Of a stretch of DNA of 64,000 nt, positions 1,865 to 17,153 are shown one piece after another. The stretch's first letter is position 1, and every line of letters begins with the position of its first letter. Under the pieces are notes generated by a model, which did no database searches, was not told where the DNA came from, and saw nothing but the letters and a program-made list of their open reading frames with translations. This DNA is from a phage, in the sequence record OZ335959.1; one strand, 5' to 3'. The position numbers and the translations under genes are program-made.

Positions 1865-3844
1865 ATGACTTTATTATCTCCGGGCATTGAGCTCAAAGAA
1901 ACTACGGTTCAAAGCACCGTGGTTAATAACTCTACTGGTACAGCAGCTTTGGCCGGTAAATTCCAGTGGGGTCCTGCTTTTCAAATTAAACAGGTTACAA
2001 ATGAAGTAGATTTAGTTAATACTTTTGGTCAACCTACAGCTGAAACTGCTGACTATTTTATGTCTGCAATGAATTTCTTACAATACGGAAATGATTTGCG
2101 AGTTGTGCGTGCTGTCGATAGAGATACCGCTAAAAACTCATCTCCGATTGCCGGTAATATTGAATACACTATTTCTACCCCAGGTAGTAACTACGCGGTT
2201 GGAGATAAAATCACGGTTAAGTATGTTTCAGAAGATGTTGAAACAGAATGTAAAGTTACCGAAGTAGATGCTGATGGAAAAATTAAGAAAATTAATATTC
2301 CTACCGCAAAAATTATCGCTAAAGCGAAAGAAGTAGGCGAATATCCAGCATTAGGTTCTAACTGGACCGCGGAAATTTCTTCGTCTTCCTCTGGTTTAGC
2401 TGCAGTAATAACTCTTGGAAAAATTATTACTGATTCTGGTATTTTATTAGCTGAAATTGAAAATGCTGAAGCTGCTATGACAGCTGTTGACTTTCAAGCA
2501 AATCTCGAAAAATATGGAATTCCAGGAGTAGTAGCTCTTTATCCAGGCGAGTTGGGCGATAAAATCGAAATTGAAATCGTATCTAAAGCTGACTACGCAA
2601 AAGGTGCTTCTGCATTACTTCCAATTTATCCAGGTGGCGGAACACGCGCATCTACTGCCAAAGCAGTGTTTGGATATGGACCACAAACTGATTCACAATA
2701 CGCTATTATAGTTCGTCGCAACGATGCTATTGTTCAAAGCGTTGTTCTTTCGACAAAGCGAGGTGAAAAAGATATTTACGATAGTAACATCTATATTGAT
2801 GACTTTTTCGCAAAAGGTGGTTCAGAATATATTTTCGCAACTGCACAAAACTGGCCAGAAGGCTTCTCTGGAATTTTAACTCTGTCTGGTGGATTATCAT
2901 CAAATGCTGAAGTAACAGCAGGAGATTTGATGGAAGCTTGGGACTTCTTTGCTGACCGTGAATCTGTTGATGTTCAGTTGTTTATTGCGGGTTCTTGTGC
3001 CGGTGAATCTTTAGAAACAGCATCTACTGTCCAAAAACACGTCGTTTCAATTGGGGATGCTCGCCAAGATTGCTTAGTACTGTGCTCGCCACCGCGTGAA
3101 ACTGTAGTTGGAATTCCTGTAACTCGTGCTGTTGATAACTTAGTCAATTGGAGAACTGCAGCAGGTTCATACACTGATAATAACTTTAATATCAGTTCAA
3201 CCTATGCAGCAATTGATGGTAACTACAAATATCAGTATGACAAATATAATGATGTAAATCGTTGGGTTCCATTAGCAGCTGATATTGCCGGTTTATGTGC
3301 AAGAACCGATAACATTTCTCAGACTTGGATGTCTCCAGCTGGTTATAATCGTGGCCAGATTCTTAACGTTATTAAACTTGCTATTGAAACTCGTCAGGCG
3401 CAGCGCGACCGTTTATATCAAGAAGCTATCAACCCAGTAACTGGTACAGGTGGTGATGGTTACGTATTGTATGGTGATAAAACAGCTACTTCTGTTCCTT
3501 CTCCATTTGATCGTATTAACGTTCGTCGTCTGTTTAATATGTTGAAAACGAATATCGGACGTAGTTCAAAATATCGTTTGTTCGAATTAAACAACGCGTT
3601 TACTCGTTCATCGTTCCGCACAGAAACTTCCCAGTACTTGCAGGGAATTAAAGCTCTCGGTGGAATTTATGAATATCGTGTAGTTTGCGATACAACAAAT
3701 AACACTCCGTCAGTAATTGATAGAAATGAGTTTGTTGCAACATTCTACATCCAACCGGCGCGCAGTATAAATTATATTACTTTGAATTTCGTCGCAACTG
3801 CTACTGGTGCAGACTTCGATGAGTTAACTGGTCTTGCAGGTTAA
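1865..3844 (+). CDS. 18: Contractile tail sheath protein, 659 aa
   Basis: N-terminus MTLLSPGIELKETTVQ and length match T4 gp18; GAGG ribosome-binding site upstream. Confidence 0.95.
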   Translation: MTLLSPGIELKETTVQSTVVNNSTGTAALAGKFQWGPAFQIKQVTNEVDLVNTFGQPTAETADYFMSAMNFLQYGNDLRVVRAVDRDTAKNSSPIAGNIEYTISTPGSNYAVGDKITVKYVSEDVETECKVTEVDADGKIKKINIPTAKIIAKAKEVGEYPALGSNWTAEISSSSSGLAAVITLGKIITDSGILLAEIENAEAAMTAVDFQANLEKYGIPGVVALYPGELGDKIEIEIVSKADYAKGASALLPIYPGGGTRASTAKAVFGYGPQTDSQYAIIVRRNDAIVQSVVLSTKRGEKDIYDSNIYIDDFFAKGGSEYIFATAQNWPEGFSGILTLSGGLSSNAEVTAGDLMEAWDFFADRESVDVQLFIAGSCAGESLETASTVQKHVVSIGDARQDCLVLCSPPRETVVGIPVTRAVDNLVNWRTAAGSYTDNNFNISSTYAAIDGNYKYQYDKYNDVNRWVPLAADIAGLCARTDNISQTWMSPAGYNRGQILNVIKLAIETRQAQRDRLYQEAINPVTGTGGDGYVLYGDKTATSVPSPFDRINVRRLFNMLKTNIGRSSKYRLFELNNAFTRSSFRTETSQYLQGIKALGGIYEYRVVCDTTNNTPSVIDRNEFVATFYIQPARSINYITLNFVATATGADFDELTGLAG

Positions 3845-3852
3845 TTGATTAT

Positions 3853-3866
3853 GGGGCTTCGGCCCC
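3853..3866 (+). terminator. GC hairpin GGGGC-UUCG-GCCCC immediately after gene 18 (RNA stability element or weak terminator)
   Basis: Perfect 5-bp GC stem with UUCG tetraloop. Confidence 0.5.
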
Positions 3867-3883
3867 TATTCTCGAGGAAACAA

Positions 3884-4501
3884 GTGATTATTTCTAAGTT
3901 TGTTAAAGTGAAAATTGTACCATCAAATTTTAAACATTATCAATCAAAGGGTTATAAATTAACACCTCTTGGAGCGGTTAAACATGGATTTAGGTATTAT
4001 GATATTGATGTTAAAGTTGAAGACATTAAAGGTAATACCGCGTATGTAAAATGCCGTTGCGATAAATGTGGAATTGAATATAACCAACGCATTGGAAGAA
4101 ACACTGATATTTGTCGTGATTGCCGTCATAAAGATAAAATGCGCAATAATTCATATGGTTCCGCGAATAAAGGAAAAACAGTAGAATGTATGCATGGCGT
4201 AAATCATCCAAGATGGAACCCAAATAAATCTGAAATGCGTGAATATATTTCATTGGTATATAAAGAAACTCGTAAGCATAAGAAAATTTGGTCAAAATGG
4301 CCAAATGCTGATAAAATAGGAGTGTGCGGTACAAAAGGTGCTTACCAACTTGATCATAAGGTATCTATCAAATACGGTTTTGATAATTTAATTCCTGCTG
4401 AAATAATTGGCGGTATTAATAATTTAGAAATAATCACTTGGGAATCTAACCGAGAAAAATCAAAAAGAAATAGTGTAGATCTTTGGGATTTACTAGAATG
4501 A
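3884..4501 (+). CDS. HNH-family (HNH_3-like) endonuclease-like protein with N-terminal Cys4 zinc-ribbon-like motif, about 205 aa; start uncertain (GTG 3884 with GAGGAA RBS, or ATG 3851)
   Basis: C-terminal LDHKVS...GGINNLEIITWESNREKSKRN resembles the HNH_3 motif; CRCDKCG...CRDCRH Cys pairs; the ORF-track TTG start at 3845 reads through a GC hairpin. Confidence 0.6.
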   Translation: MIISKFVKVKIVPSNFKHYQSKGYKLTPLGAVKHGFRYYDIDVKVEDIKGNTAYVKCRCDKCGIEYNQRIGRNTDICRDCRHKDKMRNNSYGSANKGKTVECMHGVNHPRWNPNKSEMREYISLVYKETRKHKKIWSKWPNADKIGVCGTKGAYQLDHKVSIKYGFDNLIPAEIIGGINNLEIITWESNREKSKRNSVDLWDLLE

Positions 4502-7015: not shown

Positions 7016-7440
7016 TGCTTCTGATCCCTGAAACTCATGAATTAGTTCTCGAGAATGTCGAAGCACTTATTCCTGAAGCACAGGGTCGCTTTGACGAATT
7101 GTCTTCTGCTTTAAATAAAGACGATATAAATACAATTGTCGAGAATATGCTTGATGATGAAACTGATTTAGCGATTGCATTAGCTTCTATTAATGAAGAT
7201 ATGCCGCTAAACGAATTCATCGTTAAACATGTTTCTGCTCGTGGTGAAATTACACGTACTAAAGACCGCAAGACGCGTGAACGTAATGCATTTCAAACCA
7301 CCGGGCTGTCTAAAGCAAAACGTAGACAAATTGCTCGCAAAGCTACCAAAACGAAGATTGCCAATCCAGCAGGTCAATCTCGTGCTCAGCGTAAGCGTAA
7401 AAAAGCTCTTAAACGCCGTAAAGCATTAGGATTAAGCTAA
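7015..7440 (+). CDS. 68: Prohead core protein, 141 aa
   Basis: Synteny and size as in T4; basic C-terminus. Confidence 0.8.
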
Positions 7441-8078
7441 TGAATGAACCCCAATTACTAATTGAAACTTGGGGTCAACCTGGCGAAATTATTGATGGCG
7501 TGCCAATGCTTGAATCTCATGATGGAAAAGACCTAGGTTTAAAACCTGGTTTATACATCGAAGGAATATTCATGCAAGCGGAAGTCGTCAATAGAAATAA
7601 ACGTCTTTATCCAAAACGCATATTAGAAAAAGCGGTAAAAGACTATATCAATGAGCAAGTTTTAACTAAACAAGCTCTCGGAGAATTAAATCATCCTCCA
7701 CGCGCTAATGTTGACCCGATGCAAGCCGCTATCATTATAGAAGATATGTGGTGGAAAGGAAATGACGTATACGGACGAGCTCGTGTTATTGAAGGTGACC
7801 ATGGTCCTGGAGATAAATTAGCAGCTAATATTCGTGCCGGATGGATTCCAGGAGTTTCTTCTCGTGGATTAGGTTCATTGACTGACACAAATAAAGGTTA
7901 TCGTATCGTAAACGAAGGATTCAAATTAACTGTAGGTGTTGATGCAGTATGGGGTCCAAGTGCTCCAGATGCATGGGTAACTCCTAAGGAAATTACCGAA
8001 TCACAAACGGCGGAAGCCGATACAAGTGCCGATGACGCCTATATGGCTCTCGCAGAGGCCATGAAAAAAGCGTTATAA
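7440..8078 (+). CDS. 21: Prohead core protease, 212 aa
   Basis: Length and position match T4 gp21. Confidence 0.9.
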   Translation: MNEPQLLIETWGQPGEIIDGVPMLESHDGKDLGLKPGLYIEGIFMQAEVVNRNKRLYPKRILEKAVKDYINEQVLTKQALGELNHPPRANVDPMQAAIIIEDMWWKGNDVYGRARVIEGDHGPGDKLAANIRAGWIPGVSSRGLGSLTDTNKGYRIVNEGFKLTVGVDAVWGPSAPDAWVTPKEITESQTAEADTSADDAYMALAEAMKKAL

Positions 8079-12912: not shown

Positions 12913-13191
12913 TCAAAATGTAATTTCTAACCAATCACCATCACGCTGATCACTATTGACTTTAAAGCTAAATCCTTCTTTTCTCAGCCAATCACCAATT
13001 TCTTCAGTAATCAATTTATCGCGAGCAGTACAATAATAACTAAAATATGTTTTACCTTGTTCAGCTGCTTTATTAGCAAGTTCCGAAAAATCTTTAATAA
13101 AACACTCTAGCTTAAACTGTTTACTTTTAAGTGCTTTTTCGCGTAATCGATTAGCAAAAGATTCATTTTCATAAAGATCATACTGTTCCAT
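12913..13191 (-). CDS. Hypothetical protein (T4 24.2 position), 92 aa
   Basis: ATG start, compact spacing, synteny. Confidence 0.6.
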   Translation of the reverse strand: MEQYDLYENESFANRLREKALKSKQFKLECFIKDFSELANKAAEQGKTYFSYYCTARDKLITEEIGDWLRKEGFSFKVNSDQRDGDWLEITF

Positions 13192-13393
13192 TTTTCACCT
13201 TTTTATTAATATGTCTTTTTCTATAGACAACTTTTTCTCGAGTTTCAAATTTATTCTTAGCAGTCATAGCTCGAGCCCATAATACAGCCACTTCCTTTGC
13301 CTGTAAGTTTAATTCACGAGCAATTTCAATGAATGACTTTCCAGACTCATGAAGAGTAAACACCACAACCTCAGTTCTCATAATCAATCTCAT
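13178..13393 (-). CDS. Small hypothetical protein with possible helix-turn-helix (T4 24.3 position), 71 aa
   Basis: Segment GKSFIEIARELNLQAKEV resembles an HTH; ATG start. Confidence 0.5.
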   Translation of the reverse strand: MRLIMRTEVVVFTLHESGKSFIEIARELNLQAKEVAVLWARAMTAKNKFETREKVVYRKRHINKKVKNGTV

Positions 13394-13450: not shown

Positions 13451-13476
13451 AAAATGAAGAAAGGGGCCGAAGCCCC
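13451..13476 (-). terminator. Terminator after hoc
   Basis: GGGGC-UUCG-GCCCC followed by a U-rich tract on the minus strand. Confidence 0.55.
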
Positions 13477-13482
13477 TTATGA

Positions 13483-14901
13483 TTATGGATAGGTATAGAT
13501 GATACCAGTTTCTAAAGCAGTTTTATGAATGATGTATCCATTACGTGATTCTTGAACATCAACTTCTGGATAGTCTTTCATCATCTTCTGAAGAGTGTAA
13601 CGATGCAGGTAGTATTTACTATCTGGATCTTCAGTTTTCCAATCTTTACCTTCTTCGGTCATTTTTTGGATTTCATCCATAACCCACCAACCGCACCAGA
13701 TATAAGCTGAAGTACGATGTGGAAGAGGATGAACATAAGGCAATTCACCTTCTGGTTCCGGAGCAACTTTATCAGTTACCTGAACTTGGCCTGTTGCTTT
13801 AACTGTTTTACTATCATAGTCGGTTGCTGTAACAGTTGCAGTAACTTCAATAGTTTGACTTCCAATAGATGATGTATCAACGGTGTATACATTAGTTGAC
13901 CCTTCTACAGGAGAAGAATCTTTCTTCCATGAGTATTCGATTTGTGCTTCTTCTGGAGCATCCGTAACATTAGCCGTAAATGTAGCCGAAGCATCTTGCT
14001 GAACGTTAATAGAAGGAGGAGTCAATGTAACCTGTGGATTCATTGTTTTCTTATTAACTGTCAATGATACTTCATTAGAAGTAACTTCCTTTTCATTATA
14101 ATTTTCAGCAGTTACTTGAGCCACACACTTAACTGTTTTAGCTCCAACTGTGGTAGGAGTATAGTTAAATGTAGTAGTAGTTTCTCCATCGACCAGAGAA
14201 TCGTCAACATACCACTGATACGTGGCAGACGCTCCTGGTGGCTGTGAAGCCAAGGCAGCAGTAAATTGAATTGGGGTTCCAATTACTCCGGCAGCAGGAT
14301 TAGCAGGAGTTACGGCTAACGTAGTTGTTTGTGTCTTTTTATTAACAGTCAGTGATACTTCATTCGAAGTAACGCTTAGTGCATCATAATCTGTCGCAGT
14401 TACTTGAGCCACGCACTTAATTCTTTTTACGCCGCTTTCGGCAGGAGTGTAATTGAATGTAGCAGAAGTTGCTTCGCCCACAGGAGAATCATCTACATAC
14501 CATTGATAAGTAGCGTTTGCGCCCGATGGCTGCGAAGCTAAAGCGGCTGTAAATTGAACAGCTGTTCCAATTACTCCAGCGTCAGGGCTATTAGGAGTTA
14601 CAGCTACGGTGGTCGTTTGTGTCTTATTTTGAACTGTGATAGTTGTAGTAGCTTCTGCTGTTTCAGCTTCAGCTTCTGGAACTGTATTTGTTGCAACTAC
14701 TTTAATAGTCTTTTGACCGGCAGGCCCCTTTAATACATAATTAAAAGTTGCTTCAGCTCCATCTTGTGGAACATTATCTACGCTCCAAGCATAGGTAATA
14801 GTTCCACCTTCAGTTTGACCACTGGGTGCAGCAGTAAACTGCTTGGTTTCATCAATAACCCCTGTCGGTGTTTTAGGAGTTATATCAACTGTAAAAGTCA
14901 T
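13483..14901 (-). CDS. hoc: Highly immunogenic outer capsid protein Hoc with an extra tandem Ig-like domain, 472 aa
   Basis: Position between 24.3 and inh; internal 96-aa tandem protein repeat; T4 Hoc recalled as 376 aa. Confidence 0.85.
   Translation of the reverse strand: MTFTVDITPKTPTGVIDETKQFTAAPSGQTEGGTITYAWSVDNVPQDGAEATFNYVLKGPAGQKTIKVVATNTVPEAEAETAEATTTITVQNKTQTTTVAVTPNSPDAGVIGTAVQFTAALASQPSGANATYQWYVDDSPVGEATSATFNYTPAESGVKRIKCVAQVTATDYDALSVTSNEVSLTVNKKTQTTTLAVTPANPAAGVIGTPIQFTAALASQPPGASATYQWYVDDSLVDGETTTTFNYTPTTVGAKTVKCVAQVTAENYNEKEVTSNEVSLTVNKKTMNPQVTLTPPSINVQQDASATFTANVTDAPEEAQIEYSWKKDSSPVEGSTNVYTVDTSSIGSQTIEVTATVTATDYDSKTVKATGQVQVTDKVAPEPEGELPYVHPLPHRTSAYIWCGWWVMDEIQKMTEEGKDWKTEDPDSKYYLHRYTLQKMMKDYPEVDVQESRNGYIIHKTALETGIIYTYP
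14050..14625 (-). repeat. Diverged in-frame tandem duplication inside hoc, 2 x 288 bp (one Ig-like domain each)
   Basis: Protein residues about 93-188 and 189-284 are near-identical (KKTQTTT[VL]AVTP...SNEVSLTVN); DNA offset 288 bp. Confidence 0.8.
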
Positions 14902-14910
14902 AAGTTATCC

Positions 14911-15591
14911 TTATTTTAATGTTACGAAAGAAGAATTACGTGTTTCACGAATTAGAACTGATCCGTCGCGATTAATGTAATAAATTAAGCTAAATAAAGT
15001 TTGGTGCGCAGACGCATGTTCAAAACTAGTTGGGTGAGATTTCCAATCTGGAGTTTCAGCAATCCATTGGTAAATCCACCAAGGAACAGTGCAGAATCCT
15101 GGATTTTTTCCAATCAGCTGAAGATTTGGGCTAAAGTTTTCCGGAAGAGTAAATACGGACGGCTTTTCAGATTCAATAATCTCAGCTACAGCCTGCTCGA
15201 ATTTTTCTTCAACAAAAGGAGTATCTTCAATCAAAACATCGGTATTTTCAGGAATTTTATCCGTTTCTACTACTTCAATTTTAATGTCAGATTTAACCGG
15301 AGAATCAATCAGAAGTGCTGCCTCTGGATTGACTTCTTCATCGTCATATTTTAATCCGTCTGCAGCATCAGCAGCATCAATTAAGTCTTTAATAGATAAC
15401 CCATCAGTCTCTGGCATAGGTTCACTAGCGAGCTTCTGGAGAGCTTCTTCAATATCAACAACGATATTATCAAAAGATTTATTCTTTTTGACCTTTATAC
15501 CAAACTGTTCAGCATATTCAGCTAATTTAGCTTTAGCTTCTTTATTATCATCAAGAGCCTTCAGCTCTGCAATATAATCTTTATCTATCAT
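14911..15591 (-). CDS. inh: Probable inhibitor of prohead protease, 226 aa
   Basis: Synteny downstream of hoc; acidic N-terminal half; length as recalled for T4 Inh. Confidence 0.6.
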   Translation of the reverse strand: MIDKDYIAELKALDDNKEAKAKLAEYAEQFGIKVKKNKSFDNIVVDIEEALQKLASEPMPETDGLSIKDLIDAADAADGLKYDDEEVNPEAALLIDSPVKSDIKIEVVETDKIPENTDVLIEDTPFVEEKFEQAVAEIIESEKPSVFTLPENFSPNLQLIGKNPGFCTVPWWIYQWIAETPDWKSHPTSFEHASAHQTLFSLIYYINRDGSVLIRETRNSSFVTLK

Positions 15592-15641: not shown

Positions 15642-17153
15642 ATGACTGACATTAAAGTACATTTTTATGATTTTAGTCACGTGAGAATTGATTGTGAAGA
15701 AAGTACATTTCATGAACTCCGTGATTTCTTTAGCTTTGAAGCCGATGGGTATCGTTTTAATCCAAAGTACAAATATGGTCACTGGGATGGACGAATCCGT
15801 CTTTTAGATTATAATCGTCTTCTTCCATTCGGCTTAGTCGGGCAAATTAAAAAGTTCTGCGATAACTTTGGCTATAAAGCCTGGATTGACCCACAGATTA
15901 ACGAAAAAGAAGAATTATCAAGAAAAGATTTTGATGAATGGCTTTCTAAATTAGAAATCTATTCAGGAAATAAAAGAATTGAACCACACTGGTATCAAAA
16001 AGATGCAGTGTTCGAAGGATTAGTTAATCGTCGTAGAATTCTTAATCTTCCAACATCCGCAGGTAAATCTTTAATTCAAGCTTTGCTTGCTCGGTATTAT
16101 TTGGAAAATTATGAAGGTAAAATTCTTATCATTGTTCCAACAACTGCTTTGACAACTCAGATGGCTGATGACTTTGTTGACTATCGTTTATTCAGTCATG
16201 CAATGATAAAGAAAATCGGCGGTGGAGCATCAAAAGATGATAAATATAAAAATGATGCACCGGTCGTTGTTGGTACATGGCAAACTGTAGTAAAACAACC
16301 AAAAGAATGGTTCTCACAGTTTGGAATGATGATGAATGATGAATGCCATCTTGCTACAGGAAAAAGTATTTCATCTATCATATCAGGTTTAAATAACTGC
16401 ATGTTCAAATTTGGTTTGTCTGGTTCATTACGTGATGGCAAAGCTAATATCATGCAGTATGTTGGAATGTTTGGCGAAATATTTAAGCCAGTAACGACTT
16501 CTAAATTAATGGAAGATGGACAAGTAACTGAGTTAAAAATTAATAGTATTTTTCTTCGCTATCCCGATGAGTTCACTACTAAATTAAAGGGAAAAACTTA
16601 CCAAGAAGAAATAAAAATTATCACTGGACTCAGTAAAAGAAATAAATGGATCGCTAAATTAGCTATTAAGCTTGCGCAAAAAGATGAAAACGCTTTTGTC
16701 ATGTTTAAACACGTATCGCACGGTAAAGCTATTTTCGATTTAATTAAAAATGAATACGATAAAGTTTATTACGTATCAGGGGAAGTTGATACCGAAACCC
16801 GCAATATAATGAAAACCTTAGCTGAAAACGGTAAAGGAATAATTATAGTAGCTAGTTATGGTGTATTTTCTACCGGTATTTCAGTTAAAAATCTGCATCA
16901 CGTTGTTTTAGCACACGGTGTTAAATCTAAAATTATTGTATTGCAAACAATAGGTCGCGTATTACGTAAGCATGGTTCCAAAACAATCGCAACAGTCTGG
17001 GACCTCATCGATGATTGTGGTGTTAAGCCAAAATCTGCTAATACGAAAAAGAAATATGTTCATTTGAACTATCTTTTAAAACACGGCATTGATCGTATTC
17101 AGCGCTACGCAGATGAAAAATTTAATTACGTAATGAAAACAGTTAATTTATAA
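15642..17153 (+). CDS. uvsW: UvsW RNA-DNA and DNA helicase, 503 aa
   Basis: Sequence matches recalled T4 UvsW; helicase motifs LPTSAGKS and DECH. Confidence 0.93.
   Translation: MTDIKVHFYDFSHVRIDCEESTFHELRDFFSFEADGYRFNPKYKYGHWDGRIRLLDYNRLLPFGLVGQIKKFCDNFGYKAWIDPQINEKEELSRKDFDEWLSKLEIYSGNKRIEPHWYQKDAVFEGLVNRRRILNLPTSAGKSLIQALLARYYLENYEGKILIIVPTTALTTQMADDFVDYRLFSHAMIKKIGGGASKDDKYKNDAPVVVGTWQTVVKQPKEWFSQFGMMMNDECHLATGKSISSIISGLNNCMFKFGLSGSLRDGKANIMQYVGMFGEIFKPVTTSKLMEDGQVTELKINSIFLRYPDEFTTKLKGKTYQEEIKIITGLSKRNKWIAKLAIKLAQKDENAFVMFKHVSHGKAIFDLIKNEYDKVYYVSGEVDTETRNIMKTLAENGKGIIIVASYGVFSTGISVKNLHHVVLAHGVKSKIIVLQTIGRVLRKHGSKTIATVWDLIDDCGVKPKSANTKKKYVHLNYLLKHGIDRIQRYADEKFNYVMKTVNL

Follow-up and report, generated by a model that had tools for sequence, protein, structure and literature searches.

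Gene context and features

The window, i.e. the whole 64,000-nt stretch of phage DNA that was analysed (sequence record OZ335959.1), carries a hoc gene on its minus strand. According to the ORF order compared with the T4 annotation, hoc is located in the late structural region between inh and 24.3/rnlB, and the gene order rnlB, 24.2, 24.3, hoc, inh, uvsW is the same in the window as in T4. The features of the locus, with their coordinates in the window, are as follows.

13451..13478, minus strand: terminator-like hairpin with a T-run, directly after the hoc stop codon
13483..14901, minus strand: hoc CDS (ORF list), 472 aa plus stop, highly immunogenic outer capsid (head decoration) protein, five-domain form
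13483..13764, minus strand: C-terminal capsid-binding domain, aa 380-472, plus stop codon; 94/97 identical to T4 Hoc 280-376
13765..14049, minus strand: Ig-like domain equivalent to T4 domain 3, aa 285-379; 80/91 identical to T4 Hoc 189-279
14050..14337, minus strand: repeat unit 2, aa 189-284, domain-2-type Ig cassette of type C (last-position type)
14338..14625, minus strand: repeat unit 1, aa 93-188, domain-2-type Ig cassette of type A (first-position type), from the tandem repeat and the nucleotide-tree clade
14626..14901, minus strand: Ig-like domain 1, aa 1-92; 83/92 identical to T4 Hoc 1-92
14911..15591, minus strand: inh, prohead protease inhibitor (ORF list and T4 annotation), 9 nt upstream of hoc on the same strand

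The hairpin 3' of hoc reads AAGGGGCTTCGGCCCCTT then TCTTCATTTT and has seven pairs, five of which are G-C. Some related records annotate a 'terminator' under their hoc match. The opposite strand within hoc holds no ORF of at least 60 aa (ORF list), no tRNA genes were found, and promoter-like sites were not enriched (8 found vs 9.2 expected from shuffled sequence).

The window protein is an intact, genuine Hoc of a Tequatrovirus-type phage, composed of four Ig-like domains and the capsid-binding domain. This assignment is based on the near-identity of the C-terminal domain with that of T4, a match in the PDB, a Pfam PKD match, modelled beta-sandwiches and fold matches to strings of Ig domains. 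The PDB sequence search yielded T4 Hoc (5vf3_Z) with an E-value of 2.6e-216, the best stretch pairing query residues 273-472 with chain residues 177-376. Pfam PKD scored 41.2 bits (cut-off 23.5), with its best stretch at residues 196-265 in repeat unit 2; the Pfam Ig_3 and I-set stretches at residues 289-374 were both below their cut-offs. An AlphaFold model, built from 30 close homologues only, has four beta-sandwich domains over residues 1-376 (pLDDT mostly 85-95), among them domain 1 (pLDDT 83-94) and the counterpart of T4 domain 3, with modelled beta-strands at residues 290-376. The C-terminal domain was poorly modelled (pLDDT 32-61). Its T4 equivalent is the capsid-binding domain of Hoc (PMC10385173), and its dN against T4 is 0.013. 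Foldseek matches of the model were Ig-domain strings, including the N-terminal part of RB49 Hoc (3SHS; E-value 5.4e-11), which has three Ig domains and shares 16% sequence identity with the window protein.

Tandem repeat and comparison with T4

Tandem Repeats Finder reported one array in hoc (14044-14625, period 288, 2.0 copies, 76% matches, score 661), which is the sole tandem repeat scoring at least 80 in the 64-kb window. An ungapped direct repeat is formed by positions 14044-14331 and 14332-14619 (74%). On the protein level, a self-offset scan from 80 to 109 residues gave 73% identity at an offset of 96 and 10-31% at every other offset. In domain phase, units 1 and 2 share 215/288 nucleotides (74.7%) and 70/96 amino acids (73%). 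The repeat runs head-to-tail and in frame, its period of 288 nt corresponding to 96 aa and to one domain.

Whereas T4 Hoc (NC_000866) has 376 aa, window Hoc has 472. The full-length alignment of the two proteins contains a single gap, 96 residues long and placed within the repeat. This gap corresponds to one unit, and its exact placement is arbitrary owing to the repetition. The initial annotation had given the length difference as exactly 96 aa and had located two 288-bp units at residues about 93-188 and 189-284, and the ORF list, the T4 alignment, Tandem Repeats Finder and the 96-residue offset signal agree with it on these points. It had also considered that the repeats might be the ordinary second and third domains of T4 Hoc, with the length difference arising elsewhere. 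The third Ig domain of T4 pairs with residues 285-379 and the length difference lies inside the repeat, so the repeats are not those two domains. The extra 96 aa relative to T4 are one additional copy of T4's Ig-like domain 2.

With the extra unit excluded, protein identity to T4 Hoc is 92-95%. T4 Hoc (NP_049793; PDB 5VF3, 8T1X) resembles window Hoc in gene position, domains 1 and 3 and the capsid-binding domain, and its domain-2 cassette belongs to the same family as those of the window (78-82/96 identical). It has, however, one such cassette, with a type-B centre and a type-A-like 3' segment, whereas window Hoc has two, one of type A and one of type C.

Cassette types and copy number

In a neighbour-joining tree built from the nucleotide sequences of 20 units (10 alleles), three clades were obtained, which track position and not phage: type A comprises first units, type B middle or sole units and type C last units. 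The mean identity was 88% between units at the same position in different phages and 79% between units at different positions in the same protein. Whole-unit trees of this kind simplify a reticulate history, since the T4 unit is itself a mosaic.

Copy number was determined by HMM segmentation of 122 Hoc proteins, i.e. the best 120 of 886 database clusters (90% identity) plus T4 and the window. One unit was present in 84 proteins, two in 30 and three in 8. The one-unit class includes two longer proteins (P0041 and P0060), in which the additional Ig domains have diverged too far to be scored as cassettes. Among the best 120 of the 886 cluster representatives, 80 had a length of 376-378 aa, 30 of 472 or 468 aa and nine of 567-570 aa. 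Typing of the same 122 proteins by short central motifs gave the following orders.

One unit: B 73, A 7, C 4
Two units: AB 22, AC 4, AA 3, BC 1
Three units: ABC 4, ABA 2, AAC 2

Type C never precedes another unit in these motif-typed proteins, and type B precedes A only in the two A-B-A arrays. The A-B-C order is therefore largely fixed, a strong tendency and no rule. The window belongs to the A+C class, which, with the window included, accounts for 4 of the 30 two-unit proteins typed, against 22 for A+B.

For a genome census, 60 of 682 matching phage records were sampled at regular intervals; 55 of these 60 were classifiable, with classes set by the span from inh to the 3' flank of hoc. Two units were found in 20/55 records (about 36%), one unit in 29 (53%) and three units in two (4%); the remainder were three-domain forms (2/55; PNJ-9 and EP01) and five-domain forms with divergent middle domains (2/55). 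The percentage of BLAST coverage was dropped as a counter of two-unit genes, as one-unit genes also reach 100% via joined pieces. Alleles with one, two and three 96-aa cassettes occur in otherwise collinear hoc genes, and among sequenced T4-type coliphages the 472-aa form, in which domain 2 is doubled, represents a common allele class of long standing. With 20 two-unit genomes in the even sample and 30 proteins of 472 or 468 aa among the best 120 representatives, the architecture is not particular to this genome.

Regarding named phages, 472-aa Hoc proteins with the same five domains and 84-95% protein identity are found in RB27 (YP_009102382), PP01, pSs-1, ime09, PST, Killian and ECp13. Killian is A+C like the window, whereas most two-unit alleles are A+B. 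Three-cassette Hoc proteins of 568-570 aa are those of P0002, EC101, TOPO13 and UGKSEcP1/2, which differ from the window by an additional middle type-B cassette. RB27 is a RefSeq entry with a two-unit hoc. In the moskry record, a repeat_region is annotated within hoc.

Published work already describes variation in the number of Ig domains in Hoc, with up to ten Ig-like domains in homologues (PMC10385173), and 472-aa Hoc proteins are already present in RefSeq. The literature found on Hoc domain number consists of general statements (PMC10385173) and the three-domain variant of PNJ-9 (PMC11853027); no explicit description of domain-2 duplication or of cassette copy-number variation in Tequatrovirus Hoc was found in it.

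Age of the two units

The initial annotation had interpreted the repeat as a recent, in-frame tandem duplication of a single Ig-like domain. Taken strictly, this would place the event in this phage or close to it in its lineage, with copies that had only begun to diverge. Such an event would leave a perfect head-to-tail, in-frame repeat of exactly one domain next to a T4 gene with one unit fewer, and this is the arrangement observed. The part of the claim that concerns one extra in-frame copy of domain 2 relative to T4 thus holds, but its recency does not. The dS between unit 1 and unit 2 is 0.93 (dN 0.18), against dS values between the window phage and T4 of 0.14 for inh, 0.23 for rnlB and 0.22-0.25 for Hoc domain 1 and for the C-terminal domain, so that the divergence between the units is 4-7 times the synonymous divergence from T4 in neighbouring genes. 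Nor are the repeats near-identical, as had been stated: in a set of 38 multi-unit Hoc proteins, where identity between units of one protein ranges from 70 to 82/96, they tie for the lowest value (70/96), and in none of these proteins are units more than 85% identical.

Each unit is also matched at the same position in other phages, with 95-100% identity. Unit 1 is identical at 287/288 nucleotides to the first unit of the three-unit allele L002 and unit 2 at 283/288 nucleotides to the third unit of that allele; the last units of EC101, TOPO13 and Killian moreover match unit 2 at 97%. Same-position units elsewhere are thus up to 287/288 and 283/288 nucleotides identical, in comparison with 215/288 for the neighbouring unit in the window. 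About one third of related genomes share the architecture. Hypermutation of one copy by a diversity-generating retroelement could in principle produce such divergence, but no element of this kind adjoining hoc was seen in the gene neighbourhood. On this evidence a recent duplication is very improbable.

The 288-bp repeats might in principle also have been mis-assembled from short reads, either by wrong expansion of the repeat or by joining of two alleles from a mixed sample. The units differ at 73/288 positions, however, so that reads place uniquely; the hoc frame is intact, and many complete genomes fall in the same length class. An identical gene (1419/1419 nt) is present in an independent assembly (run ERR6183312) with a different gene neighbourhood, in which inh and uvsW are separated by a segE-like GIY-YIG gene and identity to the window is only 94% in the adjoining part of uvsW. 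This identity in an independent assembly settles the concern about an artefact that had been raised in the initial annotation, and the chance of a mis-assembly is practically negligible.

It is highly probable that the two cassettes of the window are old paralogues and that the gene is an ordinary variant with no recent duplication; this grading applies to the explanation as a whole, i.e. a five-domain Hoc with old cassettes in an array of varying composition.

Nearest alleles and recombination history

Compared over 24 kb, the window shares 97.9% identity with ECp13, 97.7% with ADUt and 97.6% with pSs-1. The Ig region of hoc is the peak of divergence from the closest genomes, with 85-91% identity against 95-100% elsewhere, and the arrays of the closest genomes differ from the A+C of the window (A+B in ECp13, one unit in ADUt). 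Among deposited phages, the best nucleotide match over the full length of hoc reaches only 93.4%. Closest to the window hoc is a three-unit A-B-C allele (P0002/L002, 568 aa; runs ERR8574958 and ERR11172869). It matches the window at 276/276 nucleotides in domain 1, 287/288 in the first unit, 283/288 in the last unit and 545/567 in the tail, i.e. 98.0% overall after removal of its middle B unit; on the protein level, P0002 minus the middle unit matches the window at 468/472 positions. Killian (A+C) and EC101 (A-B-C) are related to each other in a like manner (94.9%). Since the nearest allele is 98% identical once its middle unit is left out, unit number appears to change by recombination. The hoc tail of the window is nearer to Killian (555/567) than to L002 (545/567), and a simple parent-offspring relation to the latter is therefore not established; by sequence comparison, the window allele is a mosaic.

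Within the cassettes, the ends (KTQTTTLAVTP ... VTSNEVSLTVNK) are nearly invariant, with an entropy of 0.13 vs 0.48 in the core, and the DNA identity between the two window units is 85% at the ends and 72% in the core. Based on these observations, the domain-2 position can be pictured as holding one, two or three 96-residue cassettes, which belong to type A, B or C and are arranged in this order, the number and combination of which would then shift between otherwise nearly identical genomes. The likely mechanism would be homologous recombination, in or out of register, for which the nearly invariant ends of the cassettes would serve as substrate. A single out-of-register event in a three-unit gene could turn it into A+C and leave both flanks in place.

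The A+C array of the window would most simply have arisen by loss of the middle cassette, an origin whose chances we put at about even. It is proposed as the proximate origin because the nearest relative is an A-B-C allele. The opposite course is that A+C is the older state in this sub-lineage and that a neighbour of the L002 type gained its B unit by unequal recombination with a co-infecting A-B or B phage. No trace of a B unit is present at the window junction, the B units of two examined A-B-C alleles are only 82% identical, which fits separate imports, and T4-type phages recombine readily upon co-infection (PMC9271167). However, insertion of B with retention of domain 1 plus A (563/564 nt) and of C (283/288) requires two crossovers within short conserved boundaries, whereas loss requires one out-of-register event in a single genome and is slightly favoured for this reason; the pairing of A+C with A-B-C is, moreover, seen twice in different backgrounds. 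A gain of B by the neighbour is a real possibility that nonetheless falls somewhat short of probable.

The junction between the two units offers little to separate loss from gain. No hybrid unit or crossover signature was found at this junction, where A-like sequence gives way to C-like sequence no more than about 3 nt from the unit boundary. A single informative base (AAG vs AAA) is too weak to decide between the two directions, and the L002 allele has almost no homology at the switch point.

The single T4 unit is a mosaic, type-B-like at nt 0-187 and type-A-like at nt 189-251, which implies that exchange between cassette types occurs as well. Compared with the window, it resembles unit 2 at nt 0-187 and unit 1 at nt 189-251. 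This segment order is opposite to that expected from unequal crossover, and the T4 unit was therefore rejected as a simple deletion product of the window allele.

Under the preferred reading of old cassettes in a varying array, it may further be suggested that the domain-2 position of Tequatrovirus-type hoc is a dedicated variation locus, in which ordered A-B-C cassettes with invariant, recombination-prone ends are turned over in a manner that tunes the fibre, the S-L-T motifs and antigenicity. This suggestion is speculative, and we consider it rather unlikely. It likens cassette turnover to the repeat-number variation of bacterial surface adhesins and, if true, would mean that turnover between one and three cassettes in genomes otherwise 97-98% identical tunes fibre length, the number of glycan-binding S-L-T motifs and the antigenicity of what is the most immunogenic protein of the capsid.

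Origin of the cassettes and distant relatives

In comparisons with more distant T4-like phages, domains 1 and 3 are in most cases 46-57% identical to their Hoc counterparts (50-57% for domain 1). Against any Hoc domain of these phages, the three cassette types each reach only 25-36% identity, compared with 73-83% among themselves, which points to an expansion specific to the Tequatrovirus-type hoc lineage. The array would have expanded after the split from the more distant T4-like phages and well before the sequenced Tequatrovirus phages diverged.

Changes in domain number are also found among the distant phages. In one 471-aa Hoc (L009) domain 3 is duplicated, with copies 78-80% identical, and in another of 472 aa (L008) an older duplicate of domain 3 is 48-57% identical; two further Hoc proteins have 377 aa (L010) and 282 aa (L014). 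These independent changes indicate that gain and loss of Ig domains are recurrent in Hoc evolution. PNJ-9 with a three-domain Hoc (PMC11853027), SP18 with an annotated Hoc of 282 aa and Serratia phage Muldoon with 10 Ig domains (PMC10385173) share with the window the principle of a conserved C-terminal anchor plus a variable number of Ig domains, although the domains lost or multiplied in these three phages, as in L009 and L008, are other than in the window. SP18, one of the distant phages compared, is classified in Gaprivervirus.

Function and constraint

Hoc is implicated in the adherence of phages to mucus, is a major antigen and is used as a display platform for T4-based vaccines and vectors. 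Hoc of T4-type phages is characterised by a single copy seated at the centre of every hexamer of the major capsid protein. The four-domain fibre of T4 measures about 180 Å (PMC10385173); that of the window protein is expected to be longer by one domain, with four Ig-like domains instead of three carried by the same anchor. That a longer fibre would change adhesion, as proposed in the initial annotation, is a reasonable idea.

The motif S-L-T is present at residues 183-185 and 279-281, once per cassette, in the C-terminal strand. In domain 2 of PNJ-9 Hoc, S-L-T (183-185) was reported to be needed for the binding of MUC2 fucose (PMC11853027). By analogy, two cassettes with S-L-T might raise avidity.

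A 472-aa Hoc by itself matters little, given that it represents a common allele class and that variable Ig number is published (PMC10385173). The population picture is mildly useful, as natural alleles with one, two and three cassettes in near-isogenic backgrounds constitute a ready-made series, with which the effects of fibre length or cassette number on mucin binding, immune clearance and display capacity could be tested.

Regarding selective constraint, dN/dS is about 0.19-0.25 in the Ig domains, 0.06 in the anchor and 0.02-0.04 in neighbouring genes. The Ig domains thus appear to be under weaker constraint than the anchor and the neighbouring genes, which fits an exposed, variable surface.

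Possible cassette exchange and domain number in Hoc

The sole domain-2 unit of T4 hoc (nucleotides 0-287 of the unit; gene at 3188-4318 of the T4 record, L001) is a mosaic when compared with the two domain-2-type units of the window hoc, being unit-2-like over nucleotides 0-187, unit-1-like over nucleotides 189-251 and unit-2-like again over nucleotides 260-287. This pattern suggests that sequence has been exchanged between cassettes of different types.

The tandem duplication in Hoc affects domain 3, not domain 2, in the T4-like phages L009 and L008, which are more distant relatives. The domain 3 copies are 78-80% identical in L009 (hoc at 1501-2907) and 48-57% identical in L008 (hoc at 1501-2910), and L014 (hoc at 1501-2340) carries a 282-aa form without domain 2. 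These changes in domain number in L009, L008 and L014 are independent events.

Some five- or six-domain Hoc proteins have a single domain-2-type cassette, and the other Ig domains of their central part are far more divergent. Examples are found in phage records OV877511 (UGJNEcP2) and MZ311865 (LNA2) and in the database proteins P0060 (567 aa) and P0041, the second unit of which matches that of the window at only 53 of 96 positions. The divergent middle Ig domains of these proteins are probably further cassette families.

Some database entries are oddly named or filed: MG010123.1, titled Staphylococcus phage SAJK-IND, contains a T4-type hoc region with 89.8% identity to the window, and phage moskry (MN850651.1), filed under Mosigvirus, has a hoc that is 91% identical to the Tequatrovirus-type gene of the window. 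The 472-aa Hoc cluster P0010 bears the source name 'endonuclease [Shigella sonnei]'.

Gene neighborhood of hoc

Features of the window flanking hoc are:
13178-13393, minus strand, ORF encoding a 24.3 homologue of 71 aa
13451-13478, minus strand, strong terminator-like hairpin (AAGGGGCTTCGGCCCCTT followed by a T-run), immediately 3' of the hoc stop codon
15592-15641, gap without a gene between the end of inh (15591) and the start of uvsW (15642)

The 24.3 product has 67 aa in L002 (the three-unit relative), L003 and L033 (a contig of an independent assembly), and the T4 gene is annotated with 171 nt. In T4, the homing endonuclease gene segE separates inh from uvsW, which are adjacent in the window. 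A segE-like GIY-YIG gene (205 aa, 644-1261) lies at the inh/uvsW position of L033, the hoc of which is identical to that of the window; the uvsW segment beside it shows only 94% identity to the window uvsW. Between uvsW and uvsW.1, L002 contains a NUMOD3 (homing-endonuclease-like) ORF of 230 aa (7060-7752) that is missing in L003 and in the window, where the alignment breaks at 17136-17138.
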